From a virus (taxonomy: Duplodnaviria; Heunggongvirae; Uroviricota; Caudoviricetes): 64,000 bases of DNA. Below the pieces are notes generated by a model, which saw only the letters and a list, made by a program, of their open reading frames with translations, had not been told where the DNA came from and searched no databases. The stretch lies in IMG/VR virus record IMGVR_UViG_2571042690_000019; one strand, 5' to 3'. A program made the translations under genes and the position numbers. How positions within the stretch are numbered: position 1 is the first letter of the stretch; every line of letters starts with the position of its first letter. This document shows, piece after piece, positions 11,423 through 56,710 of the stretch.

Positions 11423-12046
11423 ATGAAGGATGGTGTAGTGAAGTTAAGGGTTTTAGGGGCCGCGCTCGCGGCTATGTTGGGATGCGTATCTGCTAATACT
11501 GCCAATGCAACTGCGTTACCTGCACAATTCAGGGCAGGGCAGCAGGTTATGAATAACGCTGTTGGGGATCATTCACAAGCGGCCATTATGGACTTTTGCA
11601 AGAGGGAGGGCATTCCATTACGGCCTGTTGGAACTCAGTTTATTGGTAAAACTGACTTTTGCGTTTTTGCATATACAGCATATCTGACGGACAAAGCTAT
11701 AACAAAAACAGGTTATTCAACCAAAGATACTCTTTCCAGATTAAGTCAGGGATGGCAGCAATTCGAAGTGTATCGCCAGCAAGGATTAGGTGAGTTATTG
11801 CAACCACTTTTTATGCTTGCGTTGGTGCCAGAGGGGCAGCAATTTTTGGTTAAAAAGGGAATGCTTCGCCAAAGTGATATTGCCGGGTTCGATAGCATGA
11901 TGGCTTATGAGCGCAAACTAACCGAGCAGCGAAATAAAAAACCATCTGCTTCATGTGTGCAAAGTAAAACAGCAGAATACAGTGCAGTAGCCGGGCCTTT
12001 AGCCAAACAAATGGCAGAGCAATGGTGTAAAAAATACGGGCAATAA
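11423..12046 (+). CDS. secreted/periplasmic hypothetical protein
   Basis: 207 aa with N-terminal signal-peptide-like segment (LGAALAAMLGCVSANTANA). Confidence 0.5.
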   Translation: MKDGVVKLRVLGAALAAMLGCVSANTANATALPAQFRAGQQVMNNAVGDHSQAAIMDFCKREGIPLRPVGTQFIGKTDFCVFAYTAYLTDKAITKTGYSTKDTLSRLSQGWQQFEVYRQQGLGELLQPLFMLALVPEGQQFLVKKGMLRQSDIAGFDSMMAYERKLTEQRNKKPSASCVQSKTAEYSAVAGPLAKQMAEQWCKKYGQ

Positions 12047-12066
12047 GTTACGCAGCGGAGGCAGAA

Positions 12067-12459
12067 TTGAACAGATTGGCTATTGCTTTACTGGCGTCTT
12101 TCCCTTTGATCGCGAGCGCCGGAAATTTACAAGTTAAGTGCGGTCGGTTTGATATAAAAATCTATCCAGATGCCATATTTCTGAATGGGAATAAGGTTGA
12201 TAACGCACACCGAAAAACTGAATCTGACGTAATGAGCTATGTGTTCCAGGAGTATGCGGAGATGGGGGGAACTTACACGCTGTACTCGCTGGATGTTCCT
12301 TCTCGCGGTGATATGACATTATCCCATCAATGGCAGAACGCCGATGGCGAAGCTCTGCGCGAGGTTAAAACAGAAAAATGTGGCACTTTCCATTCTTTTA
12401 AAGGGAAAGCGCCAAATGTTAAATCTGTGCTTGAAAAACAGCGCGCAGGTGAGCTTTAA
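12067..12459 (+). CDS. secreted/periplasmic hypothetical protein
   Basis: 130 aa with signal peptide (MNRLAIALLASFPLIASAG). Confidence 0.5.
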   Translation: MNRLAIALLASFPLIASAGNLQVKCGRFDIKIYPDAIFLNGNKVDNAHRKTESDVMSYVFQEYAEMGGTYTLYSLDVPSRGDMTLSHQWQNADGEALREVKTEKCGTFHSFKGKAPNVKSVLEKQRAGEL

Positions 12460-12767
12460 ACACCTTTAACCACGGAGATGCCGTTCCCTGCACGATAGCT
12501 GCGGGGAACGGAATTCTCCATCAGGTCACGAATTACTCCCGCCTCATGTAGTTCCTCTGTTTCCCAGTATCTGTTTGTCACCAGATCCAGGCTGGCTATG
12601 ACCTTGTGCCGGTCATTCGGCATAGCCAATTTTTCTGCTATAACCATCAGTGAAAACTCTTCATCCAGTAGGATTTGATACCAGACTTTTGCCAGTTCCA
12701 ACTCTCTAATGAGGGTGAAGCGCCGCTCAAGTGTGGCGGCAGAATAAGTGAAATCTATTTTTTTCAT
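12456..12767 (-). CDS. hypothetical protein
   Basis: 103-aa ORF convergent with the secreted-protein pair. Confidence 0.4.
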   Translation of the reverse strand: MKKIDFTYSAATLERRFTLIRELELAKVWYQILLDEEFSLMVIAEKLAMPNDRHKVIASLDLVTNRYWETEELHEAGVIRDLMENSVPRSYRAGNGISVVKGV

Positions 12768-12826
12768 CGTGCGGATAATCCGATTATTTGGCAGTTAAAT
12801 CCCCGGCGTCGCCGGGGATGCAGCAT

Positions 12827-14005
12827 TTAACTAACAATCCAGTCCATAGCAATAACATCCTCTGGAGCTAAATCAATAGCATGGATTTTCCCGTCACGGA
12901 TGGTGCGCCAGTGCTTTCGTGATCCACCTTCGGGCCACACCCATATACCTTCAGGCCAGGAAGAACGACGACACACTGTTGCGTATCCAGTCCTGATCTT
13001 CTCTCTGACGGTATGTAGTGACAGATTATCCTTTGGGCTTTCAGGCACAGGATGGTGGATTGCCTGAAACATCCCCATCTTTGGATGATACCAGCGTTTA
13101 TTGCGTGGTTCTGCCTCCGACATCACCTGCTTAAAGGCTTTCCGGAAGGGGGCACGTGATCCACCTTCGGGCCACACCCATATACCTTCAGGCCAGGAAG
13201 AACGACGACACACTGTTGCGTATCCAGTCCTGATCTTCTCTCTGACGGTATGTAGTGACAGATTATCCTTTGGGCTTTCAGGCACAGGATGGTGGATTGC
13301 CTGAAACATCCCCATCTTTGGATGATACCAGCGTTTATTGCGTGGTTCTGCCTCCGACATCACCTGCTTAAAGGCTTTCCGGAAGGGGGCCAGGGCCACA
13401 ATGGAACGTCGCGCAAGCAAACCGTCGGGAGTTAAAAACTCATGCGTATCTGTGGGGATCCGGTAAGCGTTGACCAGGTTGCGGCATTTGGCTTCAGTCA
13501 GGCCGCATTTCGCCGCTAACTGGCGATAGCCAATGTAGCCTTCCGGAATATTGCCTTTCTTTATTTGCTCGACGGTTTCAGCGACTTTGGTCACTTGTGC
13601 CGATACTTCGGCTACCTGGGCATTAACGGCGTTGATCCGGCGTTCATGCTCAAGATGCATTTGCGCCATTTCAGCCAGAATTTCGGCTTTTGATTTTAAC
13701 TGTACCCGGGCATTCTCCAGTTCGCGCCAGCGGTCCACCAGCCGGGCGGTGAATTCGGGAGAGAGCTGCGCGACGACGACAATACTATCGCGCTTGCCTT
13801 GCTCGCCTTCGAAGAAATAGGCTTTTGTGTATTTATTAGGGCTAAGTGATTGATTATTCTCAACTGTAGCCAATGGCGTATGTTGGATAACTCCTTTAGC
13901 AACAAGTCTTTCGATGCTGCGTTTAACATCAGAGTGACGACTTCCCACCAGTTCCGCGATCTCAATGCTGGTCATTGTCGCTTTTTGAGAGATGGACAGA
14001 TTCAT
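12827..14005 (-). CDS. Rha/Ant-family antirepressor (immI-like module 1) with internal duplication and C-terminal fusion
   Basis: N-terminal Rha-type HTH (MTSIEIAELVGSRHSDVKRSIERL); paralog of 53204..53956; a 79-aa segment occurs twice in tandem; C-terminus matches the separate small ORF 53007..53207 of module 2. Confidence 0.65.
   Translation of the reverse strand: MNLSISQKATMTSIEIAELVGSRHSDVKRSIERLVAKGVIQHTPLATVENNQSLSPNKYTKAYFFEGEQGKRDSIVVVAQLSPEFTARLVDRWRELENARVQLKSKAEILAEMAQMHLEHERRINAVNAQVAEVSAQVTKVAETVEQIKKGNIPEGYIGYRQLAAKCGLTEAKCRNLVNAYRIPTDTHEFLTPDGLLARRSIVALAPFRKAFKQVMSEAEPRNKRWYHPKMGMFQAIHHPVPESPKDNLSLHTVREKIRTGYATVCRRSSWPEGIWVWPEGGSRAPFRKAFKQVMSEAEPRNKRWYHPKMGMFQAIHHPVPESPKDNLSLHTVREKIRTGYATVCRRSSWPEGIWVWPEGGSRKHWRTIRDGKIHAIDLAPEDVIAMDWIVS
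12918..13391. repeat. perfect tandem direct duplication, 2 x 237 bp, inside the antirepressor gene
   Basis: Sequence from about 12918 to 13154 repeats at 13155 to 13391 (gtgatccaccttcgggccacaccc...cttaaaggctttccggaaggggg); 237 is a multiple of 3, so in frame. Confidence 0.9.
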
Positions 14006-14220
14006 CAGTGCACCTCCACGCAGTTCATTGGCAGATTCCAGTAATTGAGGATCTCCATCGCATCAAGAGTGAAGCGAGCAGCAAAAATGCAGGGTTCTTC
14101 GGGAAGGTATGAGCGCGCCTCTGCTTCGGTAGCAGCCATTACGCAGATATAAAGGTGTTTTTGGCAGGAATAGAAACGCCAGATAAATTCAGAATGAGTT
14201 GGGGTAGGGATAGTAGCCAT
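14005..14220 (-). CDS. Icd-like small protein (immI module 1)
   Basis: 71 aa directly upstream of the antirepressor; paralog of 53911..54135 (shared EFIWRF..LQKH...AATE.EARS); size and position match P1 icd from memory. Confidence 0.45.
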   Translation of the reverse strand: MATIPTPTHSEFIWRFYSCQKHLYICVMAATEAEARSYLPEEPCIFAARFTLDAMEILNYWNLPMNCVEVH

Positions 14221-14224
14221 ATTG

Positions 14225-14400
14225 GCAGCCTCCTTTGACTAAGTTAAGGAGCTACCGCGTGAGGTTCCAATCTCAATGGCGGTAGCACTGACTGGGTTGG
14301 AACTACCGGCGTCAAAGGGAACCGGCCTGCCTTTCGGCAGCCCAGCCAGCACTACCATTGATCTCTGAGCTAAACGCTAAGTATGGCTGTGCGATGGCAT
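14225..14400 (-). ncRNA. candidate c4-like antisense RNA / structured leader (immI module 1)
   Basis: Non-coding stretch with nested hairpins (gctaccgc...gcggtagc; ggcctgcc-tttc-ggcagcc) and GGTTCCAA / TTGGAAC complementary heptamers. Coordinates approximate. Confidence 0.25.
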
Positions 14401-14404
14401 GACA

Positions 14405-14427
14405 CAAAAAAAGACGCGTTCGGCGTC
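14405..14427 (-). terminator. rho-independent terminator (minus strand)
   Basis: Minus-strand RNA gacgccgaacgcgtc followed by U7. Confidence 0.5.
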
Positions 14428-14469
14428 TGTGTCGCCTTTGACATTATCCGGGGTTCCAATCCCGGCACC

Positions 14470-14486
14470 CGTTTTTCTAAGGTGCC
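14470..14486. promoter_or_regulatory. C1-operator-like variant upstream of immI module 1
   Basis: ccgtttttctaaggtgc, TTTTCTAAGG variant of the recurring core. Confidence 0.3.
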
Positions 14487-15020
14487 GTAGAAATATACCC
14501 CACGATAATGCCATGGCGCAACAGTCAGTATTTTATGCTTTGGCGGATTTCTTCCGGGCTTGCTTGCAGGCGTAGGCCATTGCTTTAGCTTTCACTTCAT
14601 CCAGCTTCCCGGTGATCACTTCTTTTCCGAGAGTGACAAACCAGTCATAGCAACCGCCAGTAATGTTCTTGATTTGAAAGTTGAGGTAGCGAACAGTCAT
14701 TTTGACACCCCCAGCGCGAGTAAAGAATGCAGATTATCGCGTGAGTGGTGGACGACGAGTGATGGGAAAAGACTGTAGTTGTTCATAGTGTAGTGACTCC
14801 TTGCTTTCGGAGCCGCCATTGACTGTTCCACGGTCTGGTGGCGGCGCAATAAAGGCTGGAACACCGTGAGTCAACGGGGGCTTTTCAGCCACCTATATTG
14901 CACCGCCATAGGTATAGCGGCGGCAATAATACGAAAAACTAAACAGTTTGTCTCAAAAAGTTGACCGGTGTGCCAATCGGTAGTGAATGTACATCGGGGA
15001 AATTTACAATTCAACTTAAA

Positions 15021-15033
15021 ATGTTAGAAAACT
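15021..15033. promoter_or_regulatory. C1-operator-like site
   Basis: atgttagaaaact (reverse complement AGTTTTCTAACAT) at the 3' end of the ref-like gene. Confidence 0.4.
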
Positions 15034-15610
15034 AATTTATCAATTCAATCGCCATCTGATACAACGCCATTTCATCGGCATTGTGCCGTATGAAATCTGC
15101 TTTTCCGCCTATTTTTCCATCAGCATGAACAGGGACCAGCCAGGGATATTGTTCTCGGACCTCGGCTGGCGCTGCGTACTGGTGGTGCCATTTACACAAA
15201 GGGAGGACATATTTATGCGCGTTCTCTGCCGTTCTCCCGAAGATATGGTGCAGGGATACTACTGGGCTATGTTGCCCGTGAATATGGCAGGCAATGCAGG
15301 GGAGAGTACCGATAGCGGTCTGTATCCGGCGTTCATCGGCTGTGAGTGATCTGCCCTTCAGGCCGCGTGACGTGCGTGTTTTTTTGGGCGGAGCGGATAC
15401 AGCTTTATCTTTTCTCCGCTGTTCATATTGCTTTGCTTTTTCAATTTTCTTTTGCCGATATTCAGGCGATGCGGCTTTTTCTCTCGCTCGCTGCTGCTGG
15501 CGTTGAGCTTGTTGAAGGCGCTTTGCCCTTTGTTCCTCTCGCCAGGCCGGGTCAGCCAATTTTTGCATGGCTTTTTGTCTCTGTTTCTCCCAATAACTCT
15601 GTTTCTGCAT
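15032..15610 (-). CDS. ref: Ref-like HNH endonuclease (RecA-dependent nuclease)
   Basis: 192 aa; highly basic Q/R/K-rich disordered N-terminus then Cys/His core (LPCIACHIHG...SLHHIFGRT...LPLCKWHH), as recalled for P1 Ref. Confidence 0.55.
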   Translation of the reverse strand: MQKQSYWEKQRQKAMQKLADPAWREEQRAKRLQQAQRQQQRAREKAASPEYRQKKIEKAKQYEQRRKDKAVSAPPKKTRTSRGLKGRSLTADERRIQTAIGTLPCIACHIHGQHSPVVSLHHIFGRTAENAHKYVLPLCKWHHQYAAPAEVREQYPWLVPVHADGKIGGKADFIRHNADEMALYQMAIELIN

Positions 15611-15677
15611 GATGGCAGTCTCTTACTTTTCAACGATTTTTCTATGATTGATCAAAATGGTTAGATATTCAAAATTG

Positions 15678-15695
15678 ATTTTCTAACATAAAACA
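15678..15695. promoter_or_regulatory. C1-operator-like site in divergent promoter region (ref / 15856 operon)
   Basis: gattttctaacataaaac. Confidence 0.45.
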
Positions 15696-15855
15696 TTAAT
15701 ATCATTCCTGATAACTGTTTGGAGGACATGATGCTTATAGCTTTAAGTGCGATCCACCAGCCATCTGTGAATGAGATTGGCCTGTTCTATGTGTTGGTTT
15801 TCGGGGCGTTGGCGCTACTTGAGCTTGGTATTGAGCTTTTCGCAGTGCTTATGTT

Positions 15856-16506
15856 TTGCGTCACGATTCTGGGGAAATTTTGATGGTGAAACGTGTTTTG
15901 AAAATTTACATCGCGGGGCCGATGACTGGTTATCCAGATTACAACCGTGCGGCGTTTAATGCGAAAGCGAGCGAGCTGATGTCTGAAGGGCATATCGTTC
16001 TGAATCCAGCTGTGTTACCTGGTGGCCTTTGCCAGAGTGAATACATGGATATTTGCCTGGCAATGGTGCGTTCTGCTGATGCGATCTATCTGCTCAATCA
16101 ATGGGAAGAATCGGTTGGTGCTCGCGCAGAGCACGCGCTGGCTGAAAAGCTGGGGCTGACTGTAATTTATGAGTCACAAACCAACATTGAATGCCAGGTT
16201 GCTCCGCATATTTACCGTGAACTGGTAAATGCGTTACGTGATGTTGCTATTGAATGTCACGGCACGGATCAGCTTCGCGCCCGCTTAAGCAAAACCCTTT
16301 CCAGTTACCTGTCTTTGGCTGAAGGATACAACCTCCGGCAGCGGAGAATGGTCAAATTAATCACGCGTTTATCTCAATCCCTGGCAAATGCCGAACCAAC
16401 TAATCCGCTACCTAATGACGCAATGAATTACCTGAAGTCATGCGGCGTTGTTTCTGAAGATGCAGTTCGTTTTGTGGAGTTTATGTCTCAGAGGATGTCA
16501 GCGTGA
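15856..16506 (+). CDS. nucleoside 2-deoxyribosyltransferase-like (DUF4406-type) protein with extra C-terminal module
   Basis: N-terminal IYIAGPMTGYPDYNRAAFNAKASEL...ADAIYLLNQWEESVGARAEHALAEKLGL; C-terminal HIYRELVNALRDVAIECHGTDQLRARLSK is shared with the 538-aa protein at 24449..26065. Confidence 0.45.
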   Translation: MRHDSGEILMVKRVLKIYIAGPMTGYPDYNRAAFNAKASELMSEGHIVLNPAVLPGGLCQSEYMDICLAMVRSADAIYLLNQWEESVGARAEHALAEKLGLTVIYESQTNIECQVAPHIYRELVNALRDVAIECHGTDQLRARLSKTLSSYLSLAEGYNLRQRRMVKLITRLSQSLANAEPTNPLPNDAMNYLKSCGVVSEDAVRFVEFMSQRMSA

Positions 16507-33259: not shown

Positions 33260-33280
33260 TTTTATGTTAGAAAACTAAAT
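33260..33280. promoter_or_regulatory. C1-operator-like site overlapping promoter of 33293 gene
   Basis: ttttatgttagaaaactaaat. Confidence 0.45.
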
Positions 33281-33292
33281 CGAGTAGGAATA

Positions 33293-34330
33293 ATGAGTAA
33301 GAAGTCGATCGAGAAAGAGTACAAACGGTTCCTGCAAACCGCTGAACGGTGGAAAGAGCTGGTGGTCGCAAACTCTGTTTTCCATGATACCAGTTATGCT
33401 GGCGAGGAATTCCGCCATGTTGCATTAACGCATGACCAAAACATATTAGAAGAAGCTGAAAAATGTCTTGCTGAATGGAAAGCCTTCGTTGACATGTGCC
33501 GCGATGCCGACGGCAAAGCGTCGAACATTGTTGAGTCTGTATATTCTCCGATCCCATTCATCATTGAGGACACCAATCAAAGCACGCATGTCGTTGTGCA
33601 AAGCGCTACAACAACACGTACATTTACACGTGAACAATTGCTAAAAAAATACGACAAAATCATAAAGAAAAGCCTTAAAAATAGGGTTTTTTCTCAAATC
33701 GTAGGTGATCTTGAAGAAGAACAGCGCTTCTTTGAAGCTGAGCCTGAAGGCGAGATCTACCGGGCGCGTAAAGAGGCATATACAGATGTTGTGCTGACAA
33801 CAAACATCGAAGGCAGCAATGCCCTTTCTCGCTTTAGAGTTGGCGCACATGGTGCATTGGTTTTCGCAAGACTACCGAAGACAACGATCCCCGTTGTCAA
33901 TAATGTTGGTGAACGCCGGAGCATTACAATTTATTCTGGCGTCGAATCGGTACCTTGCAGCCTTCTCGGCGATTTTAACTTATATCGTGTTCGTGACCTG
34001 GAAAAACACCAGCCAAGCTATGTTGCGAAGTCGTACATCTTAAGGAACATCGATATTCGCAATGAAAGCCTTAAGCAGAAATCCGCTAAGATGCTGGAGG
34101 ATGCCGATCCGGCTATTCGCCATATCATTGAGCGTAAGATACGTACATCACGTGAAGCAATGGCAAGGCTGGATAAAATGGATCTGGAATTGTTAGACGT
34201 AATGATGGCCTCTGGAGACGACCTGACCGGCATTAAACTGAATGAAGCTCGTAAAAAATACGGCAAAGCAATCGAAGAACGTTACGGATACACATTCCCC
34301 CAAACGCAGTACGCCGCGAAGCTCTGGTAA
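33293..34330 (+). CDS. hypothetical protein; candidate primary repressor (C1-like) by position only
   Basis: 345-aa ORF with an operator in its own promoter, divergent from cre/lox and convergent with pacB, as c1 is in P1. No sequence-level recognition. Confidence 0.3.
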   Translation: MSKKSIEKEYKRFLQTAERWKELVVANSVFHDTSYAGEEFRHVALTHDQNILEEAEKCLAEWKAFVDMCRDADGKASNIVESVYSPIPFIIEDTNQSTHVVVQSATTTRTFTREQLLKKYDKIIKKSLKNRVFSQIVGDLEEEQRFFEAEPEGEIYRARKEAYTDVVLTTNIEGSNALSRFRVGAHGALVFARLPKTTIPVVNNVGERRSITIYSGVESVPCSLLGDFNLYRVRDLEKHQPSYVAKSYILRNIDIRNESLKQKSAKMLEDADPAIRHIIERKIRTSREAMARLDKMDLELLDVMMASGDDLTGIKLNEARKKYGKAIEERYGYTFPQTQYAAKLW

Positions 34331-39149: not shown

Positions 39150-39225
39150 TGGTGGCCCCTACCGGACTTGAACCGGTGACCGTGCGATTATGAGTCGCCA
39201 GCTCTAACCACTGAGCTAAGGGGCC
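39150..39225 (-). tRNA. tRNA with CAU anticodon (Ile2-lysidine type, or Met)
   Basis: Minus-strand GGCCCCTTAGCTCAGTGGTTAGAGCTGGCGACTCATAATCGC...GGTTCAAGTCCGGTAGGGGCCACCA; close to E. coli ileX from memory. Confidence 0.85.
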
Positions 39226-40914: not shown

Positions 40915-40990
40915 TGGTGCCGATTAACGGACTCGAACCGCTGACATCCTGCTTACAAGGCAGGCGCTCTACCAACTGAGCTAAACCGGC
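40915..40990 (-). tRNA. tRNA-Thr (anticodon UGU)
   Basis: Minus-strand GCCGGTTTAGCTCAGTTGGTAGAGCGCCTGCCTTGTAAGCAGG...GGTTCGAGTCCGTTAATCGGCACCA. Confidence 0.9.
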
Positions 40991-40992
40991 AT

Positions 40993-41068
40993 TGGCGATG
41001 GTGGATGGATTTGAACCATCGACCCGTTGATTAACAGTCAACCGCTCTAACCGCTGAGCTACACCATC
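40993..41068 (-). tRNA. tRNA-Asn (anticodon GUU)
   Basis: Minus-strand GATGGTGTAGCTCAGCGGTTAGAGCGGTTGACTGTTAATCAAC...GGTTCAAATCCATCCACCATCGCCA. Confidence 0.9.
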
Positions 41069-51500: not shown

Positions 51501-52337
51501 TTTACGCAATACCCATACGTCCACCACGGTATCTGTACCGGATTCGCTGAACGTACCAGAAGGCATACGATGTGCGCCCAAAAATTCCGCTTTACGGCTG
51601 ACTTTATCGCGCAATTTTTTATATTTCGCACCATCGGTCATGCCATTCGGCACCACCAATACGATAAGCCCACCAGGTTTAACCTTGTCGATCGTGCGCA
51701 GCACAAAGTAATTGCCAACGTTCTTCTCGTTTGCATATGCCGGATCAAGCCCGGCGACACCGGAACGCCCTTCACCAAACGGTACGTTACCAACAGCGTG
51801 ATCATACATTGCGTCTTTCGCCGCCAGCGCCTCAAACGCCCCGATATTCACATCGTCTTCCGGGTGCAAAAGCTGGTTTATTCGACCGGAAATCTGAGAC
51901 AGTTCGGCGCTGGTCATTATCATGCCCTGCCGTTTTGTCTCCTGGAAAATACCTGTGCCCGCTGATGGTTCCAGTACGTGCCCGCCATCAATACCGTAGT
52001 CAGCAAACAGATCCCATATACCTTCAGCCATAAACTGTGGCGTGTAGTATTCGTATTGGCTGCCCTCACCATCTGTCAGGCCGCCTTCACCGGTATACCC
52101 GGCAAGAATCTGACGTTGTTCGTCAGTTAATTTCGCCCCATCGAAGCCGGGCGGAAGGGAATTAAGAAGATTTACTGCGGCATTATTTGCTGCCCGGCGT
52201 GTTTTCTGAATACTGACGCCATCGGCTTTCCTGACGCCAAAGGTCGCAACAGCACGTAATTTATGCAACCGACTAACAATTTCAATCAGTTCGCCTAAGC
52301 TGGAGGCTTCACTGATTGAATGAAGTAGTTTGTCCAA
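45501..52337 (-). CDS. darB: giant DarB-like protein: N-terminal adenine-MTase-like domain plus SF2 helicase
   Basis: 2278 aa (P1 DarB about 2255 from memory); N-terminal MTase-like motif (HAVGNVPFG); helicase Walker A GFGTGLGKTTTALALEAY and DEGH box IADEGHNYRN. Confidence 0.6.
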   Translation of the reverse strand: MDKLLHSISEASSLGELIEIVSRLHKLRAVATFGVRKADGVSIQKTRRAANNAAVNLLNSLPPGFDGAKLTDEQRQILAGYTGEGGLTDGEGSQYEYYTPQFMAEGIWDLFADYGIDGGHVLEPSAGTGIFQETKRQGMIMTSAELSQISGRINQLLHPEDDVNIGAFEALAAKDAMYDHAVGNVPFGEGRSGVAGLDPAYANEKNVGNYFVLRTIDKVKPGGLIVLVVPNGMTDGAKYKKLRDKVSRKAEFLGAHRMPSGTFSESGTDTVVDVWVLRKHPETFLEMIPDTDDSTLKSANVLWDTFLKGKWFTTEGKRFVYGDMERTSFRNTLVVKKDGRVSNESMKTALSRRFDSRINWDLLGVTTQAWQGAKVGDKRLVGGIWHEFDGLKWVKDTTTKSSALDVSRYGVSTFGDLQIAFQSTNGILALSWDQISAIASDYPSVVSDEVAAMIRFAGKQREKDRERVMRGALIGQLINKALDLRNLGVNVDDKLADASRLAAAEVAKYGPPHAIKLNGLAEAGAKNWMTFTGNVKQDGSTSDLLAGRLDVTDGAAGIDFTRPEQVIAHLFSDVALNPITLGDFREAFAGELPEDDDAALEYLAKFDDIAIDGYGCLLPMDRATSGDIATKTALLMGWRDASTGEQKANFERQLAKIEEKRIFTPLNKVTVNLNARWLDRRLIKEFLAEQGYDEFKYTEPDLKVVDGILVSPDDYEGKDGVFTGYQLRTVNGKNGNEFKKANNKDGFLNQLENYLNGVKPRGQNANEYLDKIAQLEVSFNDWLRTHPQADQIAREYNDAFNGFIPFTHSDAPLGLEGLSGKRIPLTYQNEEVRRLSEDGRGIMGFGTGLGKTTTALALEAYNFETGRTKRTCIVVPKAVYQNWYHEAQSFYSADAFANMMFIGLDEVRDDSGNILTAPVLDENGEPRLDSNGQPLTRNVVKESASAVIVQRMNMIPSSNWRTVIMTKEQFASIPLREKTIEENSQQAVFNAVEMGRLDLASGKHRDAQKKNKIKDQAANTGTTKKQNIPYFEDMNFDSVIADEGHNYRNSFNAGREAGQLAYLPNPAVSKMARDMAVKAAYMMKRNNGRGVVMLTATPLVNSPIDAFNMLSTVIPQEEWMRMGIITPDDFVRVFGKTATVQVQKISGEVEEKQGLVGFQNLDGLRGIFHRWTTLKTAADVGATVKIPDIIENTLQIPMTGEQETAYEELRKRAQELSRNDELTVDENGHITNDKPDDFIFSIIRDMDKVAIDPDLYASAITFQFPVELADQVKAIADALPKVAGGKVADDVDEAEEDGAGGLVSTRTSKVVKTAFSEHPTHVEIRASIELEAEILKAIAAAGIDMQQVSHPIPPKYAALIENLREGLKNGKQIVFIDEKAQHQKLRRIIASALQMPEQEIGIINATTVSQAGGIKLKKVNKPTEPTPNKNGEYKEGTWETYYSKLAQYEDYLSAKNDAGLEGMEGIAADYNEGRTRIIICNKKAEVGINLHIGTTDIHHLTLPWTPASIDQRNGRGARVGSPQEKVNVHYYCGKGTFDDFRLDTLKRKKDWIKMVMTSDMSEIANGDADDADERAIMLAANPEERRAIMARQAQEREERLKLKAQREANNALDIYLKAANAAGKDIGMMETELKSAMEQIEYYQRNLDDLIKAGTNRNGQKYALEQLSSYRKRARVLRFAITRAKDADTIMKRSRGDVERAIKSGVLDISIDVIQNPQEYMRTDKNILLHKGSYYRAVIDDRETTAIVRVEKIDGEKAQYLCRIAWLDRASRYARAPGSIVTLPFDSVIEAVTFEEGVAESRATAARGVQCHQLSTILTRDQFYDAIRNGVMNVIAGKPGNAWGGGSAIKYWAYRTDDGQIALSSAYDGVIGQKIGRASDIAPERWIYPDGNDEALKREVAKIQASDNPLNIVDGEGFLQALYGYDYTQGMQAWGAQATMDDVAHEFENWMAGRGLSGRSLNKVTSEDILSLFRKPSGEGLESFWRTVLAYRLFQGRMKAFSNIDDIERMFNQVKIAKIKAKIEKTRSALVAWRDALFEQYKSLSDADGWAALEQLANNGVDGAKLAIVQADNPLESPAAQWIKVGAVINAFDEKHISKDDFADAVSVNRLVEMATRRARELKDGDYVNELPDTLKSATWQDYVSLKNGGATESEIAERLEQAESKREEQAAVAEARADEAANDDYIIVVNDKPIRAKARVRGRWWSVSEDVGAVYLIADQPGSSTIRNAKDAIKKIGGRFWNFEANPVADVNFDRPAWMVSTRYSVDELRKIIADAA

Positions 52338-52488
52338 AGGATTTCCCCCTCTAAACCGTAAAAAATTCCGCTATGCGGTACGGTTGAGAGGGTATGGAGA
52401 ATGTTATTTTCAGGGGGACGATACTACCGTCAAAATCACATACTCCCCATAGTTTGCCTACTTATTAACCCATGACCGGGGGAAAAAT

Positions 52489-52974
52489 ATGGCAAACATT
52501 GAACCTCGCTGGCTAATTGAAGCCCGTAAGCACATTGGCCTGACTGAAATAAAAGGCGCTAAACACAACCCTGAAATCGTTCAGTTCTGGCGCGACATCA
52601 AGCGCGGCGGAATTAAAGACGATGAAACGCCGTGGTGCGCAGCATTTGTCGGTGCAATGCTGGAACGTGTAGGCATCCGCTCAACAAGATTTGAGTCGGC
52701 AAAATCCTATCTGGATTGGGGCGAGAAATTAGATACACCGGCATACGGATGTATCGTTGTATTTACCCGCGTAGGCGGTGGGCACGTAGGCTTCGTTGTC
52801 GGACGCCGCGCCAATGGCGATCTGCTTGTCTTGGGTGGGAACCAGGGGGATGCGGTAAATATTCGCGCATTCCCAACATCAAGAGTGTCTGGCTATCGCT
52901 GGCCTGCTGGCGAACCACGCAATACCGCTCTGTTACCAGTCGGAGACGCAGCAACCTCAACTAATGAGGCATGA
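52489..52974 (+). CDS. CHAP/NlpC-P60-like cell-wall hydrolase family protein
   Basis: 161 aa; candidate catalytic Cys (TPWCAAFVG) and His (GGGHVGFVVG); resembles phage peptidase family from memory. Confidence 0.45.
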   Translation: MANIEPRWLIEARKHIGLTEIKGAKHNPEIVQFWRDIKRGGIKDDETPWCAAFVGAMLERVGIRSTRFESAKSYLDWGEKLDTPAYGCIVVFTRVGGGHVGFVVGRRANGDLLVLGGNQGDAVNIRAFPTSRVSGYRWPAGEPRNTALLPVGDAATSTNEA

Positions 52975-53006
52975 AAAAAGCCCCGGCCTGGCCGGGGCAT
53001 CACGCT

Positions 53007-53207
53007 TCAAGTCACGATCCAATCATTACCGACTATATCAGCCGTCGATAAATCAACTTCCCGGATCTGGAGTCCATTAATACAAAACCATCCGGTAGTA
53101 GAGTAATTATCAGGCCAGGCCCATACACCAACACTCCATGCTTTACGGCGGCACACTTCAGCCTGTCCTTCCCTGATTTTTTTTACCGCCTGCATGATGT
53201 CCATCAC
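53007..53207 (-). CDS. small protein downstream of antirepressor 2
   Basis: 66 aa; homologous to the C-terminal segment fused onto the module-1 antirepressor. Confidence 0.4.
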   Translation of the reverse strand: MMDIMQAVKKIREGQAEVCRRKAWSVGVWAWPDNYSTTGWFCINGLQIREVDLSTADIVGNDWIVT

Positions 53208-53956
53208 TCACCTCCCCAACCGATCACCTGGAATTGCCCCATTTTGGGGTGATACCAGCGTTTTCCTCGGTGTTCAGCCTCCGACATCATCCGGTTAAAA
53301 GAATTCATGAAGGGAGATAAGGCCACGATGGAACGACGCGACAATACCCCCTCTGGAGTTAAAAACTCATGTGTATCGGTGGGAATCCGGAAAGCGTTAA
53401 CCAGGTTGCGGCATTTGGCTTCGGTCAGGCCACATTTCGCCGCCAGCTGGCGGTAGCCAATGTAACCTTCCGGCATATTGCCCTTCTTGATTTGCTCGAC
53501 GGTTTCAGCGACCTGGCTAACCTTTGACTCAACAGCATGAAGCCGCTTTTGCTGCTGAACTGCATTTGCAGCCATTGCGGCGATCATCTCTATTTCGGTC
53601 AACGGCTGGCGTACTTGTTCTTCCAGTTCGCGCCAGCGGTCCACCAGCCGGGCAGTAAACTCAGGACAAAGCTGTGCGACTACAATGATACTGTCTCGTT
53701 TGCCTTGCTCGTCGCTAAATCGGAACACCTGAATTAATCGAGAACGCCCCATTACATCTATTTTTGGTTCATCCTCAATTTGAGGACGAACAATAACGCC
53801 GGATTCGGCTAATGTTTCAATGGTACGCTTCACATTGTCATGACGTTTTCCCACCAGCTCCGCGATCTCAATGCTGGTCATTGATGGCTTTTCAAGAATG
53901 CAGATATCCATCAGTGTGCCTCCGCAATGCCGGGATTGGTAATATTGCGATACCAA
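53204..53956 (-). CDS. Rha/Ant-family antirepressor (immI-like module 2)
   Basis: 250 aa; paralog of 12827..14005 (MTSIEIAELVGKRHDNVKRTIE, QLCPEFTARLVDRWRELE, YIGYRQLAAKCGLTEAKCRNLVNAFRIPTDTHEFLTP). Confidence 0.65.
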   Translation of the reverse strand: MVSQYYQSRHCGGTLMDICILEKPSMTSIEIAELVGKRHDNVKRTIETLAESGVIVRPQIEDEPKIDVMGRSRLIQVFRFSDEQGKRDSIIVVAQLCPEFTARLVDRWRELEEQVRQPLTEIEMIAAMAANAVQQQKRLHAVESKVSQVAETVEQIKKGNMPEGYIGYRQLAAKCGLTEAKCRNLVNAFRIPTDTHEFLTPEGVLSRRSIVALSPFMNSFNRMMSEAEHRGKRWYHPKMGQFQVIGWGGE

Positions 53957-54135
53957 GGATTAGTGTTTGGTTGTGGGGAAGTAGAGAAACGACCAGTAAG
54001 AACACCATGCTGATCAGGGATCAGAGAACGGGCTTCTTTTTCGGTTGCGGCAATTGCGAAGTGATCGCAGTGTTTTTGCAGGGAGTGGAAACGCCAGATG
54101 AATTCTGGACGTGAGCAAGGATTGGCATTAACCAT
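53911..54135 (-). CDS. Icd-like small protein (immI module 2)
   Basis: 74 aa, overlaps antirepressor start by 46 bp; paralog of 14005..14220. Confidence 0.45.
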   Translation of the reverse strand: MVNANPCSRPEFIWRFHSLQKHCDHFAIAATEKEARSLIPDQHGVLTGRFSTSPQPNTNPWYRNITNPGIAEAH

Positions 54136-54139
54136 AGTT

Positions 54140-54420
54140 ACGGCCTCACTAACAGGTTTAACAACCTGCTACCCGCTGTCAAACAGGTGGCAGGACGTGA
54201 CAGGGTTGACAGACTGGCGTTAGTGAAACCAGCAGGCCGAAGCCTCCCCATCACGCCCCACCATAATTCGGGCGTAACGTGGTTTACGGACACAAAAATA
54301 CCGCAATATCGGAAATCTGCGGTTGTCCGCACTAACATTCAGGCTGTCAAACCTGGTCGCAGAATTTGCTACGACGGCATGAATATAAGCCTGAAAACAT
54401 GGAAGATCAACTAAAAATTT
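54140..54420 (-). ncRNA. candidate c4-like antisense RNA / structured leader (immI module 2)
   Basis: Non-coding stretch with TTGACAG and complementary CTGTCAA heptamers at 54177, 54206 and 54344. Coordinates approximate. Confidence 0.25.
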
Positions 54421-54482
54421 CAGCAATGGATGACTTCAGTCGATGATGCAGATCATACATTCCGATTTAGAAACAGCAAATT

Positions 54483-54500
54483 AATTTTCTAACATAAATC
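54483..54500. promoter_or_regulatory. C1-operator-like site upstream of immI module 2
   Basis: aattttctaacataaatc. Confidence 0.45.
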
Positions 54501-54548
54501 ATCGAGCGGGCATTTTCCGATCATTGGGATGCTTTGTAGACACACAGG

Positions 54549-55511
54549 TCATCCCCTAAAGCCCGCCGGGATTGACCAATCCTCACGGTCAAATTCAGAC
54601 CGATAGCCACGCTGTTTCATCAGGTCAAAGGCTTCACCAATGGTTGCACACCCCTGGGAGCCAGAATAATCCATTGAGAAATCCAGGGCACTGGATTGTT
54701 TAGGCTTATTCACTGCGGTAGCGGCACTACGTATCCATGCAAATTTTTTTGCCAGCTTTTCAGCGGTACGATACAGAGCCTGCCGTTTTGCGTGCCCCTC
54801 GTCTGAACGACGCTTTGCAGCTCTCGCTTTTGCCGCCGCCAGGCAGTGGTTGGTATGTTCTTCCCTGATTACTGGTTTTTTATCCAGCACCCCATTATCC
54901 GCTTGAGAACTATCTGCTGGTGAAGCCTTTGGCTGAACCGCGCATGATCTTTCTCTTCTTTTTGCTATAGAGTGACTCTTATTTTCTATTGGCTGTTCAT
55001 TTTGAACATGGGGGGGCTTGTTCAATTTGAACAGGGGGTTCCCAGTTTCAAAAAAATAACGAACCTTTGAAATCAACTGCTTAACCAGTTTTGTGGCGTT
55101 GGCAAATTTGATGCCCTGCTTACCCCCTATCTCCATTGCTACATGAATGAAGTGGAGAAATTGTGTCGTAAACCGATATACGTTACACACCTGGGCATTG
55201 TTATTCGCTACCTGATGTTGCTTAACAAGCATTCCGCACTTCGTCGCTTCAGCAAATGCCCTGCGCACAGTAGAAATACTGCGTCCTGTAATCTCGGACA
55301 TATCAGCATATGAGCGACGGATCATGTATTCATCGGTAGCCCCTGCCAGGTTGGCGAACTCGGCAATAATGGCGCTATGTGAAGGGGAAAGAAGACCGCT
55401 ATGACGGGCAAAAAAACTCAACTGATGACCTTTGATTTTTTTGTGGTATTCAGTGTTGTTTTTATACTCAGAAGTGTTGAAAGTTACTGAAACTGAATTT
55501 AAAATACTCAC
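54549..55511 (-). CDS. HTH DNA-binding protein, possibly replication initiator (RepL-like)
   Basis: 320 aa; HTH-like ITGRSISTVRRAFAEATKCGMLVK; operator-controlled promoter upstream; RepL assignment is a guess. Confidence 0.3.
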   Translation of the reverse strand: MSILNSVSVTFNTSEYKNNTEYHKKIKGHQLSFFARHSGLLSPSHSAIIAEFANLAGATDEYMIRRSYADMSEITGRSISTVRRAFAEATKCGMLVKQHQVANNNAQVCNVYRFTTQFLHFIHVAMEIGGKQGIKFANATKLVKQLISKVRYFFETGNPLFKLNKPPHVQNEQPIENKSHSIAKRRERSCAVQPKASPADSSQADNGVLDKKPVIREEHTNHCLAAAKARAAKRRSDEGHAKRQALYRTAEKLAKKFAWIRSAATAVNKPKQSSALDFSMDYSGSQGCATIGEAFDLMKQRGYRSEFDREDWSIPAGFRG

Positions 55512-55681
55512 CAGATAGTTCCGTGAAAAAATCTATCTACCGTATAAATCTATGCCAGTGGATTTATACACCAAAAAGCCGCTTCTCAGCGGCTTTTGCT
55601 TTTTTTGGCAGTCGCTACCGGAGCAGTGACCGCGATCCTACTCGATCCCATCCACCAGGATCAACAGTGTATATAAATACA

Positions 55682-55700
55682 CTATGTTAGAAATTTAACT
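55682..55700. promoter_or_regulatory. C1-operator-like site
   Basis: ctatgttagaaatttaact. Confidence 0.4.
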
Positions 55701-55711
55701 TAACAAGGCGA

Positions 55712-56710
55712 TCACCCCCTTCTGGAAACGAAGAGTAACGGGGTGGTGTTTTTGTTCTCCTTCGGTGATAACTCTGGTTCTTTCTTGCCTGATACCGGTA
55801 AGCCATAAGTAGCATTTGCCCCAAGAGATTCAAGCATCGCAGCCACTATGCGGGCATCATCTTCAGACTGCATACGGCAGAGCGCCCGGCGCTGTTCTGC
55901 GCTGATAAAAACAGGCATTTCCTGGATAGCGTCACGCAAAATCCGGCGGCATTGCTTTGCATTTTCCCCCTGGCTTTCCATCATCGCTGTTTGAGCGCGC
56001 AGCTTATCTCGAAGCTGTATGTTTTCCACTTCAAGGAGCATCAATTCTGATTCCAGGGCTTCACGATGTGCAGATTCGAGCATGGCTTGCTGATTTTTCA
56101 TTGCCGAAAAGTGGTGAACCAGATCCGTAGCAGCGTTATCGGTAAAACCTTGTTCGATAAGTGCTGCATGAATAGCCGCATCGCGCTCTTCTGCTGATTC
56201 AAGCATCAGGCTTTTCTTGTCGAGGCTGATATAGTTAGGCACAGTTACGTAATCAAAGCCGTGGAAAGACTTTACCAGGGATACCGATGAATCTGGACCA
56301 GATGTAGCCCACGACCAACCACCAGCACCAGAATTAATCATGCCCTGAACAATACGCCCGGTGTCTGTATCCAGTATTTCCTGCGTATGAGTAACAATGC
56401 CGTTGTCGTCAATCGAAATGTCGATAGTCCTGTTTGACGGCACGTTCTCCAATACAACAGGCTTCCCATCTACCATCACAACAGAGACTTCCGGCAAGTT
56501 CAGGCTTTTCGTTTTGTTATAGTGCATCGCCCGGCGACCATGACCGTAATAACCATACATCTCACCCAGCGCGATACGCTCTTTTGTTTCTGGCGAGTTG
56601 AATGTGTCTCGTACCGACTGAATGACGTAATTTCGGTTGTTCTGCGGTGTGTGTTTGCGGATTTTCTCTACCAGGGAGAAGCGATCCGTAACAGTATTCA
56701 GTGATTGCAT
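55712..56710 (-). CDS. hypothetical protein (last gene of long minus-strand late-type operon)
   Basis: 332-aa ORF. Confidence 0.5.
   Translation of the reverse strand: MQSLNTVTDRFSLVEKIRKHTPQNNRNYVIQSVRDTFNSPETKERIALGEMYGYYGHGRRAMHYNKTKSLNLPEVSVVMVDGKPVVLENVPSNRTIDISIDDNGIVTHTQEILDTDTGRIVQGMINSGAGGWSWATSGPDSSVSLVKSFHGFDYVTVPNYISLDKKSLMLESAEERDAAIHAALIEQGFTDNAATDLVHHFSAMKNQQAMLESAHREALESELMLLEVENIQLRDKLRAQTAMMESQGENAKQCRRILRDAIQEMPVFISAEQRRALCRMQSEDDARIVAAMLESLGANATYGLPVSGKKEPELSPKENKNTTPLLFVSRRG

Follow-up and report, generated by a model that had tools for sequence, protein, structure and literature searches.

Does a phage element that carries two copies of an immI-like region also carry two separate antisense RNA switches, and would both of them contribute to its immunity? 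The immI locus of phages P1 and P7, in which an antisense RNA (c4) sets immunity specificity, is a textbook system that has been described as a single module. The question arises from a 64,000-nucleotide stretch of DNA (here called the window, meaning the whole stretch analysed) from IMG/VR virus record IMGVR_UViG_2571042690_000019, for which an earlier sequence-only reading had proposed two copies of the arrangement operator, structured leader, icd-like small open reading frame (ORF) and Rha/Ant antirepressor, with different complementary heptamers in the two leaders. Two complete c4-type antisense modules are encoded on the minus strand of the window, and their recognition codes differ. All six heptamers named in the sequence-only reading were found, one of them a base away from its given position (54176, not 54177), and the gene order was as described; the operators were recovered only in part, as no P1-type C1 operator is present and a different motif lies near module 2. 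Two features had been overlooked, namely the second set of recognition elements (b) and a 237-bp tandem duplication within the first ant gene.

Both regions are matched by phage D6 (NC_050154), with 93% identity at positions 12000-16000 and 96% at 52000-56000. D6 is an E. coli phage, distantly related to P1, that is maintained as a plasmid prophage (NC_050154), and the window is a D6-like plasmid prophage, or phage-plasmid, closely related to D6. The top plasmid matches to the module 1 region are E. coli plasmids of approximately 91 kb (98% identity), and 453 plasmid records match this region.

Element positions were obtained by aligning the transcribed strands of P1, P7, both D6 leaders and both window leaders, using the P1 RefSeq record, in which a1, b1, c4, a2 and b2 are annotated. 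The annotated P1 positions coincide with those of the window elements in both modules, with a1 and b1 upstream of c4. The heptamers correspond to the P1 a elements (a1, a' and a2) and fall where the sequence-only reading had expected them, with a' in the 3' linker of c4 and the targets as annotated in P1, and the covariance-model search that it had proposed yields an Rfam C4 match above threshold in each leader (Table 1). The targets a2 and b2 are perfectly complementary to a' and b' in module 1 (7/7 and 8/8) and in module 2 (7/7 and 7/7), and the upstream a1 and b1 copies are perfectly complementary to c4 in both modules. The b2 element of module 1 overlaps the Shine-Dalgarno sequence of icd1 (AAGGAGG; ATG at 14220), and that of module 2 extends into the Shine-Dalgarno sequence of icd2 (GAGG; ATG at 54135). 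Relative to shuffled controls, the folding z-scores of the two c4 RNAs are -5.0 (module 1) and -4.7 (module 2), and a consensus fold of eight diverse C4 RNAs (RNAalifold) contains 28 pairs, 13 of them with compensatory changes on both sides. In this consensus a long closing stem encloses two hairpins; a', in the linker 3' of hairpin 2, and b', in the hairpin-2 loop, are unpaired both there and in the single-sequence folds of the two modules.

The heptamers of the two modules occur 11 and 7 times in the whole window on both strands, where approximately 7.8 occurrences are expected, so that isolated heptamers outside the leaders are present at the chance rate. Paired a and b sites are confined to the two leaders, and the heptamers are therefore not chance matches, since only there are they co-located with a matching b element. 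Covariation was assessed in RCS47, JL22, Stx2 phage F004 and phiP27 and in 110 IMG/VR loci with genes for relatives of the two Icd-like proteins; the six elements were extracted from each of these loci. Fifteen distinct haplotypes were distinguished among P1, P7, D6, the window, the IMG/VR loci, RCS47, JL22, an Stx phage and phiP27, and in these 433 of 434 base-pair cells are Watson-Crick or G-U. The cognate c4 is fully complementary to its own a2 and b2 in all 15 haplotypes, while only 2 of 74 non-cognate c4/target sets of the same family are fully complementary, and those two have identical a2 and b2 elements; the recognition elements thus covary with their targets between heteroimmune relatives. 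Several variants (L036, Stx F004 and phiP27) contain G-U wobbles, which points to pairing between RNAs and would not be predicted from repeats at the DNA level; in phiP27 and Stx2 phage F004 the pairing of b1 with b' involves a U-G wobble, and that of b2 is perfect. The sole haplotype with a mismatched element is L037 (an IMG/VR locus with the leader upstream of position 2001), which combines the a1 UUGAGAC with a' and a2 of UUGGAAC specificity, so that the mismatch lies at a1 and not at the repression target. L037 is either a natural recombinant of recent origin or an indication of weaker constraint on a1.

The sequence-only reading had held that the two modules use distinct recognition sequences, and both a and b indeed differ, with at least 2-3 mismatches per element. 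The c4 RNA of module 1 (c4-1) has 3/7 mismatches to the module 2 targets at a and 3/7 at b, and that of module 2 (c4-2) has 2 mismatches to the module 1 targets at a and at least 3 at b. In the alignment each P1 element differs from its P7 counterpart by two bases, and the two phages are reportedly heteroimmune, as described by Citron and Schuster in 1990. Their heteroimmunity is summarised elsewhere (PMC12197685). Since the two window modules differ at least as much as these heteroimmune phages, they should not cross-repress; judged by position-wise complementarity, the modules are mutually orthogonal, each c4 being expected to control only its own operon because the codes differ. RNAduplex energies of isolated c4 segments against target regions were also tried and discarded as too noisy to indicate specificity, because free ends pair anywhere.

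The codes of the close relatives vary. The a and b elements of window module 2 are exactly those of P1, and its leader and icd are 93% identical to P1 at the DNA level; on the P1 model, P1 c4 and c4-2 would therefore each be expected to repress the operon of the other, even though P1 and the window element fall into different clusters. D6, in contrast, combines P1's a with a different b (ACUUACG) in module 2, and has a = UUGAGAC and b = GCAAAAGG in module 1. Overall, four a/b combinations were found in module 1-type leaders on D6-like contigs, five in module 2-type leaders and seven in a third group of leaders (group 3). The two elements recombine independently, with P7's a accompanied by P1's b in L100 and P1's a accompanied by P7's b in L088 and JL22. 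Seventeen D6-like elements (11 contigs, four genomes split over two contigs, D6 and the window) display 11 four-element combinations.

Taken by analogy with P1, these features suggest how each module would work. In P1, c4 is a stable RNA of approximately 77 nucleotides that is processed from the leader, with RNase P acting at its 5' end. Each window module would form one minus-strand transcription unit read from a sigma-70-like promoter, its transcript comprising, in order, an IsrK/a1b1 element displaying a1 and b1, c4 with unpaired b' and a', the a2/b2 targets, the icd-like ORF and a coupled, Rha-type putative antirepressor. As in immI of P1 and P7, c4 would be excised from the leader and accumulate in the lysogen, where it would pair in trans with a2 and b2, block translation of icd and thereby block synthesis of Ant. 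An incoming or resident copy with a mismatched a/b code would escape this repression and make Ant. We consider it likely that both modules are functional c4-type switches of this kind, each repressing its own icd-ant operon without cross-talk.

Table 1. Features of the two modules and associated loci (window coordinates unless a locus is named)
Feature	Position	Strand	Details
Module 1 proximal promoter-like site	14492..14521	-	TTGCGC (14521-14516), 18-nt spacer, TATATT (14497-14492); read from sequence
Module 1 upstream RNA element, IsrK-like, equivalent to P1 a1b1	14407..14485	-	Rfam isrK 61.3 bits (threshold 50); a1 UUGGAAC in hairpin-2 loop (14453-14459); b1 GUCAAAGG single-stranded (14435-14442); intrinsic terminator: hairpin 14412-14428, then U7 run
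c4 antisense RNA, module 1	14275..14362	-	Rfam C4 77.1 bits (threshold 45), full length; b' CCUUUGAC (14311-14318) in hairpin-2 loop; a' GUUCCAA (14297-14303) in 3' single-stranded linker
Module 1 repression targets	14232..14270	-	a2 UUGGAAC (14264-14270), b2 GUCAAAGG (14232-14239); P1 a2/b2 alignment
Module 1 a elements as DNA	14263-14270, 14452-14459; 14297-14303		GGTTCCAA (first two); TTGGAAC (third)
Module 1 b elements as DNA	14232, 14311, 14435		GTCAAAGG/CCTTTGAC
icd-like ORF, module 1 (71 aa)	14005..14220	-	NCBIfam phage_ICD_like 49.4 bits (cut-off 25); phrog_1426
ant1, Rha-domain putative antirepressor (392 aa)	12827..14005	-	Pfam Phage_pRha; phrog_63 'anti-repressor Ant'; C-terminal phrog_7385
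GC-rich hairpin past ant1 stop	12801..12817	-	CCCCGGCGACGCCGGGG; read from sequence; possible module 1 operon end
Operator-like motif upstream of module 2	54480..54494	-	TGTTAGAAAATTAAT; abuts/overlaps -35 of distal promoter-like site
Module 2 proximal promoter-like site	54382..54410	-	TTGATC-17-TATATT; promoter scan; aligned with annotated P1 promoter P51b (P1c4)
Module 2 upstream RNA element, P1-type a1b1	54294..54388	-	Rfam c4-a1b1 54.4 bits at 54336-54388 (threshold 46.7); a1 UUGACAG (54344-54350), b1 GUUAGUG (54330-54336), hairpin (54300-54323), then AUUUUU
c4 antisense RNA, module 2	54183..54268	-	Rfam C4 68.8 bits (threshold 45), full length; b' CACUAAC (54219-54225), a' CUGUCAA (54206-54212), both identical to P1 c4
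Module 2 repression targets	54147..54182	-	a2 UUGACAG (54176-54182), b2 GUUAGUG(A) (54147-54153)
Module 2 a elements as DNA	54176-54182, 54344-54350; 54206-54212		CTGTCAA (first two); TTGACAG (third)
Module 2 b elements as DNA	54147, 54219, 54330		GTTAGTG/CACTAAC
icd-like ORF, module 2 (74 aa)	53911..54135	-	NCBIfam phage_ICD_like 40.3 bits (cut-off 25)
ant2, Rha-domain putative antirepressor (235 aa)	53204..53911	-	Pfam Phage_pRha; phrog_63; D6 orf18 annotation
orf17 homologue (65-66 aa)	53007..53207	-	phrog_7385; coupled to ant2 by TGATG overlap
Intrinsic terminator closing module 2 operon	52980..52998	-	8 G-C pairs, then T6
Distant C1-repressor homologue (345 aa), presumed Ant target	33293..34330	+	NCBIfam phage_rep_C1 E = 6e-6; D6 orf1 'similar to P1 C1'
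Copies of TGTTAGAAAANTAAT	3507, 3522, 11388, 15022, 15674, 20927, 31855, 33265, 37698, 42130, 42286, 43535, 44578, 54480, 55685		
Second module in RCS47	L117, 1816-3415		c4 and IsrK-like RNAs unannotated
Second module in JL22	L118, 1603-3296		c4 and IsrK-like RNAs unannotated

The upstream elements of the two modules match different Rfam families, isrK (RF01394, assigned to no clan) in module 1 and c4-a1b1 (RF03163, clan CL00128) in module 2, the C4 family itself being RF01695. In a permissive Rfam scan, however, the a1b1 segment of module 2 also matched the full-length isrK model, below its threshold of 50 (43.5 bits, E = 2.3e-8), and the IsrK-like segment of module 1 matched c4-a1b1 with 22.4 bits (E = 1.4e-3; threshold 46.7). 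Both upstream elements fold alike, with three hairpins of which the third is terminator-like and in module 1 forms a canonical terminator, a1 in or near the second loop and b1 single-stranded, and on this comparison Salmonella IsrK and P1 a1b1 appear to be RNAs of one kind. The predicted transcription start of module 1 lies near 14485, where the Rfam isrK model begins; the -35 of its promoter-like site was below the detection of the promoter scan, and both TTGCGC and the -10 positions are conserved in group-3 leaders. Public records annotate ORFs over the module 1 leader (14239-14514, both strands), such as the 'ash family protein' of PGAP plasmid annotations and, on the opposite strand, D6 orf84; these ORFs lie across the genes for c4 and the IsrK-like RNA and are probably not genuine.

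The Gifsy-1 isrK locus may be regarded as an experimental precedent for the layout of module 1. Gifsy-1 IsrK is a terminated 77-nucleotide small RNA (sRNA), and read-through of its terminator yields both a processed, stable RNA of approximately 80 nucleotides (STnc1160) and the antirepressor AnrP, whose translation depends on an upstream small ORF and is raised approximately 140-fold by IsrK in trans (PMC4825925). STnc1160 overlaps 'orf45', which is conserved in nucleotides but not in amino acids, and the authors of that study invoked alternative mRNA structures and likened the system to P4 CI without mentioning P1 c4 (PMC4825925). IsrK and c4 have separate entries in a 2025 review, and in P1 the upstream a1 and b1 are annotated only as 'putative'. 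The module 1 upstream element passes the isrK threshold, and the order of terminated sRNA, processed RNA and antirepressor is shared, while the small ORF of the window encodes a 71-amino-acid Icd-like protein rather than orf45. When the Rfam isrK model is aligned to the window, its positions 26-32 correspond to the a1 heptamer; hence the Gifsy-1 mutations G28A and G31A would fall in a1, if the numbering is the same. By this comparison a1b1/IsrK may act as an anti-antisense decoy for c4, and STnc1160 would itself be a C4 RNA.

Downstream of each leader the stop codon of icd overlaps the start of ant (TGATG). The two Icd-like proteins are 45% identical to each other, while Ant1 and Ant2 share 61% identity across the whole length of Ant2 (BLASTP). 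Both Ant proteins contain a Rha domain (PF09669) and no ANT domain in Pfam, whereas P1 Ant1 has PF03374, and neither was similar in BLASTP to the group-3 Ants of P1 type. Group-3 loci were themselves considered as Rha-type second modules and rejected, as BLASTP found no Rha Ant there but P1-type Ants instead. A perfect in-frame tandem duplication of 237 bp is present in ant1 at 12918-13390 (2.0 copies, 100% match; Tandem Repeats Finder), lengthening the protein from 313 amino acids in D6 to 392. This duplication is absent from D6, from the closest plasmids (which span 1664 bp for a query of 1901 bp) and from every one of the 27 IMG/VR module 1 loci; either it arose very recently or it is an artefact of the assembly. 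The Ant ORFs of the IMG/VR module 1 loci (L005-L032) are mostly 313 or 308 amino acids long, although several are far shorter (45, 69, 164 and 212 amino acids), for which degeneration of ant1 in some elements or errors in sequencing may account.

The phrog_7385 domain has its own gene in module 2 (D6 orf17), whereas in module 1 it is joined to Ant1 as a C-terminal fusion (12827-13030). The family is tiny (3 and 7 relatives). A Tad2-like anti-Thoeris function was considered for both and rejected: the full-length Pfam match was weak (E = 0.034, 15 bits; cut-off 25), no sequence match was found in the PDB, and an AlphaFold model (predicted local distance difference test score 71.7) gave no significant PDB match (best E = 0.58) and none to Tad2. 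The hairpin that follows ant1 was not called by the terminator scan because its T run is short.

An antirepressor requires a repressor, and the presumed target is the distant C1 homologue, whose distance from P1 C1 is consistent with a different operator sequence. A de novo search identified the asymmetric motif TGTTAGAAAANTAAT. When up to 2 mismatches are allowed, the window contains 15 copies of it, where 0.76 would be expected by chance, and none of 100 shuffles reached this number. One copy (33265-33279) lies 28 bp upstream of the C1 homologue, two flank ref and one lies upstream of repL. The copy upstream of module 2 adjoins a distal promoter-like site read from the sequence (TTGCTG at 54479-54474, a 16-nucleotide spacer and TATGAT at 54457-54452), and this overlap with the -35 recalls Op51/P51a of P1. 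The copy nearest to module 1 (15022-15036) is approximately 500 bp upstream, with two small ORFs between. The motif is a candidate D6-type C1 operator, to which C1 would bind.

D6 and all 11 IMG/VR contigs spanning the two positions carry both modules, and the complete D6 genome contains the same four Rfam matches as the window (two C4, isrK and c4-a1b1). The same two icd-ant pairs are annotated in D6 as 'Icd-like' and 'anti-repressor Ant' (orf83/orf82 and orf19/orf18), although its RefSeq record, unlike that of P1, annotates no c4 RNAs or targets, and the ant1 duplication is found only in the window. The remark of the sequence-only reading that P1 has one immI holds for P1, for which a single c4 is given by the curated record and the literature, but dual modules are found not only in D6 and every informative D6-like contig but also in RCS47 and JL22. 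These P1-like elements combine a canonical immI with a second, IsrK-type c4-icd-ant module of different code between pacB and c1; here, however, the backbone is of P1 type, and the second module adjoins c1 and drives an ORF6N/KilAC-type Ant. The IsrK-type leader also precedes P1-type Ants elsewhere, including one 94% identical to P1 Ant1 (L033) and an ORF6N+KilAC protein (L036), and its occurrence before different Ant families marks it as a mobile cassette; both leader types are cassettes. The IsrK-type leader is widespread in lambdoid phages. It is present in 129 phage records of Stx-converting and other lambdoid phages, where IsrK and C4 precede Rha-type regulators; isrK and C4 are annotated next to each other in one deposited record. 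In phiP27 (L120, ~2000-2260) and Stx2 phage F004 (L119, 2000-2260) the IsrK-C4 leader directly precedes a regulator gene without icd, and the a element of phiP27 (UUGGAAC) is that of window module 1.

Compared to immI of P1 and P7, the window modules have the same order of a1, b1, c4 (b', a'), a2 and b2 over the icd ribosome-binding site, the same overlap of icd with the start of ant and, in module 2, a proximal constitutive-type promoter that aligns with P51b. They differ in that two modules are present, that the Ants are of the Rha type (PF09669) rather than the KilAC type (PF03374), that repL lies upstream rather than downstream, that Op51 is replaced by another operator-like motif and that module 2 adds the coupled orf17. 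More distant counterparts are the P4 CI RNA (seqA/seqB/seqC) and the CA RNA-icd-antA/B/C region of N15, in which a processed leader RNA pairs with flanking complementary repeats and shuts off downstream genes; the P4 (and N15) RNA acts mainly through premature transcription termination, and in P4 it controls replication genes. The P4 CI region has 73% similarity to the c4 region of window module 1.

The two-module arrangement as such is already known. It is recorded in the D6 annotation, in RCS47/JL22 and in a 2019 paper that briefly mentions that a D6-like plasmid contains a second such region (c4/icd; PMC6799933), Silva et al. being among the prior records of two regions (D6 or D6-like plasmid prophages such as pYU39_89), and Venturini et al. 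(2019) described an extra inserted 'ant' in RCS47-like plasmids (PMC6906374). The combinatorial shuffling of a and b and the assignment of a1b1 to the IsrK kind of RNA appear to be new: in a literature search that did not cover the D6 genome paper (Gilcrease and Casjens, 2018), no analysis of codes, covariation, orthogonality, combinatorial diversity or IsrK/a1b1 equivalence was found. Among its other features the window contains three tRNA genes on the minus strand (39153-39225, 40918-40990 and 40996-41068), which match three D6 tRNAs (Rfam).

There are several potential explanations for the presence of two modules. One is that the heptamers are chance matches or relics and that one or both leaders are non-functional remnants. 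The covariation of all three copies of both elements across 15 haplotypes effectively refutes it, and the covariance-model scores well above threshold, the compensatory stem changes, the intact coupled ORFs and the retention of the arrangement in D6 and hundreds of plasmids leave it barely credible. It is also very improbable that the modules are redundant, cross-reacting duplicates that provide a single specificity and a back-up copy. The shared architecture, the paralogous Ants and the single Icd-like family would fit such a duplication, but the explanation is already disfavoured by elements that differ at 2-5 positions per 7-8 nucleotides in both directions, where two plus two differences accompany heteroimmunity in P1 and P7, as well as by the low identity of the Icd proteins and by leaders that belong to two deep sequence families, isrK-type and c4-a1b1-type.

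The remaining explanations both accept two working switches and differ in what the switches serve. It is possible, and we propose it tentatively, that the window encodes two orthogonal three-component switches (decoy sRNA, c4 and ribosome-binding-site target) whose Ants both inactivate the same C1, so that immunity would require a match at both modules and be specified by a combinatorial code, with a1 and b1 titrating c4 as IsrK activates AnrP. Rather unlikely, but to be taken seriously, is the alternative that only one module, probably module 2 with its proximity to repL and an operator-like site, acts in the element's own immunity, while module 1 is a lambdoid-type cassette whose Ant1 acts on the repressors of co-resident lambdoid or Stx prophages (cross-induction) or, via phrog_7385, on some other host or phage target. 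The lambdoid and Stx-converting distribution of the IsrK and C4 leader before Rha-type regulators, the a element shared with phiP27, the exchange of this leader type between Ant families, the truncated ants of several IMG/VR loci and the distance of module 1 from the nearest operator-like motif all fit a cassette. On the other hand, the paralogy of Ant1 and Ant2 favours a shared target, module 1 is retained in D6 and in every informative D6-like contig, and changes in its a/b code are accompanied by changes in its c4, which is what an immunity determinant would be expected to show. Several points also weigh against the likely explanation of two functional, orthogonal modules. The C1 homologue is very distant from P1 C1, scoring 25.9 bits against an NCBIfam equivalog cut-off of 500, and the P1 operator Op51 (ATTGCTCTAATAAATTT) is absent from the whole window even when up to 3 mismatches are allowed. 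As the Ants are Rha-type proteins and not relatives of the KilAC-type Ant1/2 of P1, the label 'antirepressor' is an annotation by similarity only, and the truncated ant1 ORFs suggest that module 1 could be dispensable. In addition, ant1 of the window carries the 237-bp duplication, which may affect the putative Ant1.

The proposal of two independent switches acting on one repressor has implications beyond the window. Many P1-supercluster phage-plasmids carry two modules of different code, each code being composed of two elements that can be exchanged independently; E. coli, Salmonella and Shigella commonly harbour D6-like elements, and resistance genes are frequent in the wider group of P1-like phage-plasmids. 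Linking IsrK to P1 a1b1 would give a testable function to an unexplained part of immI and would unite two literatures that do not cite each other. If both modules do gate the same repressor, the number of heteroimmune types would multiply, shaping which of these elements could co-exist or displace one another.

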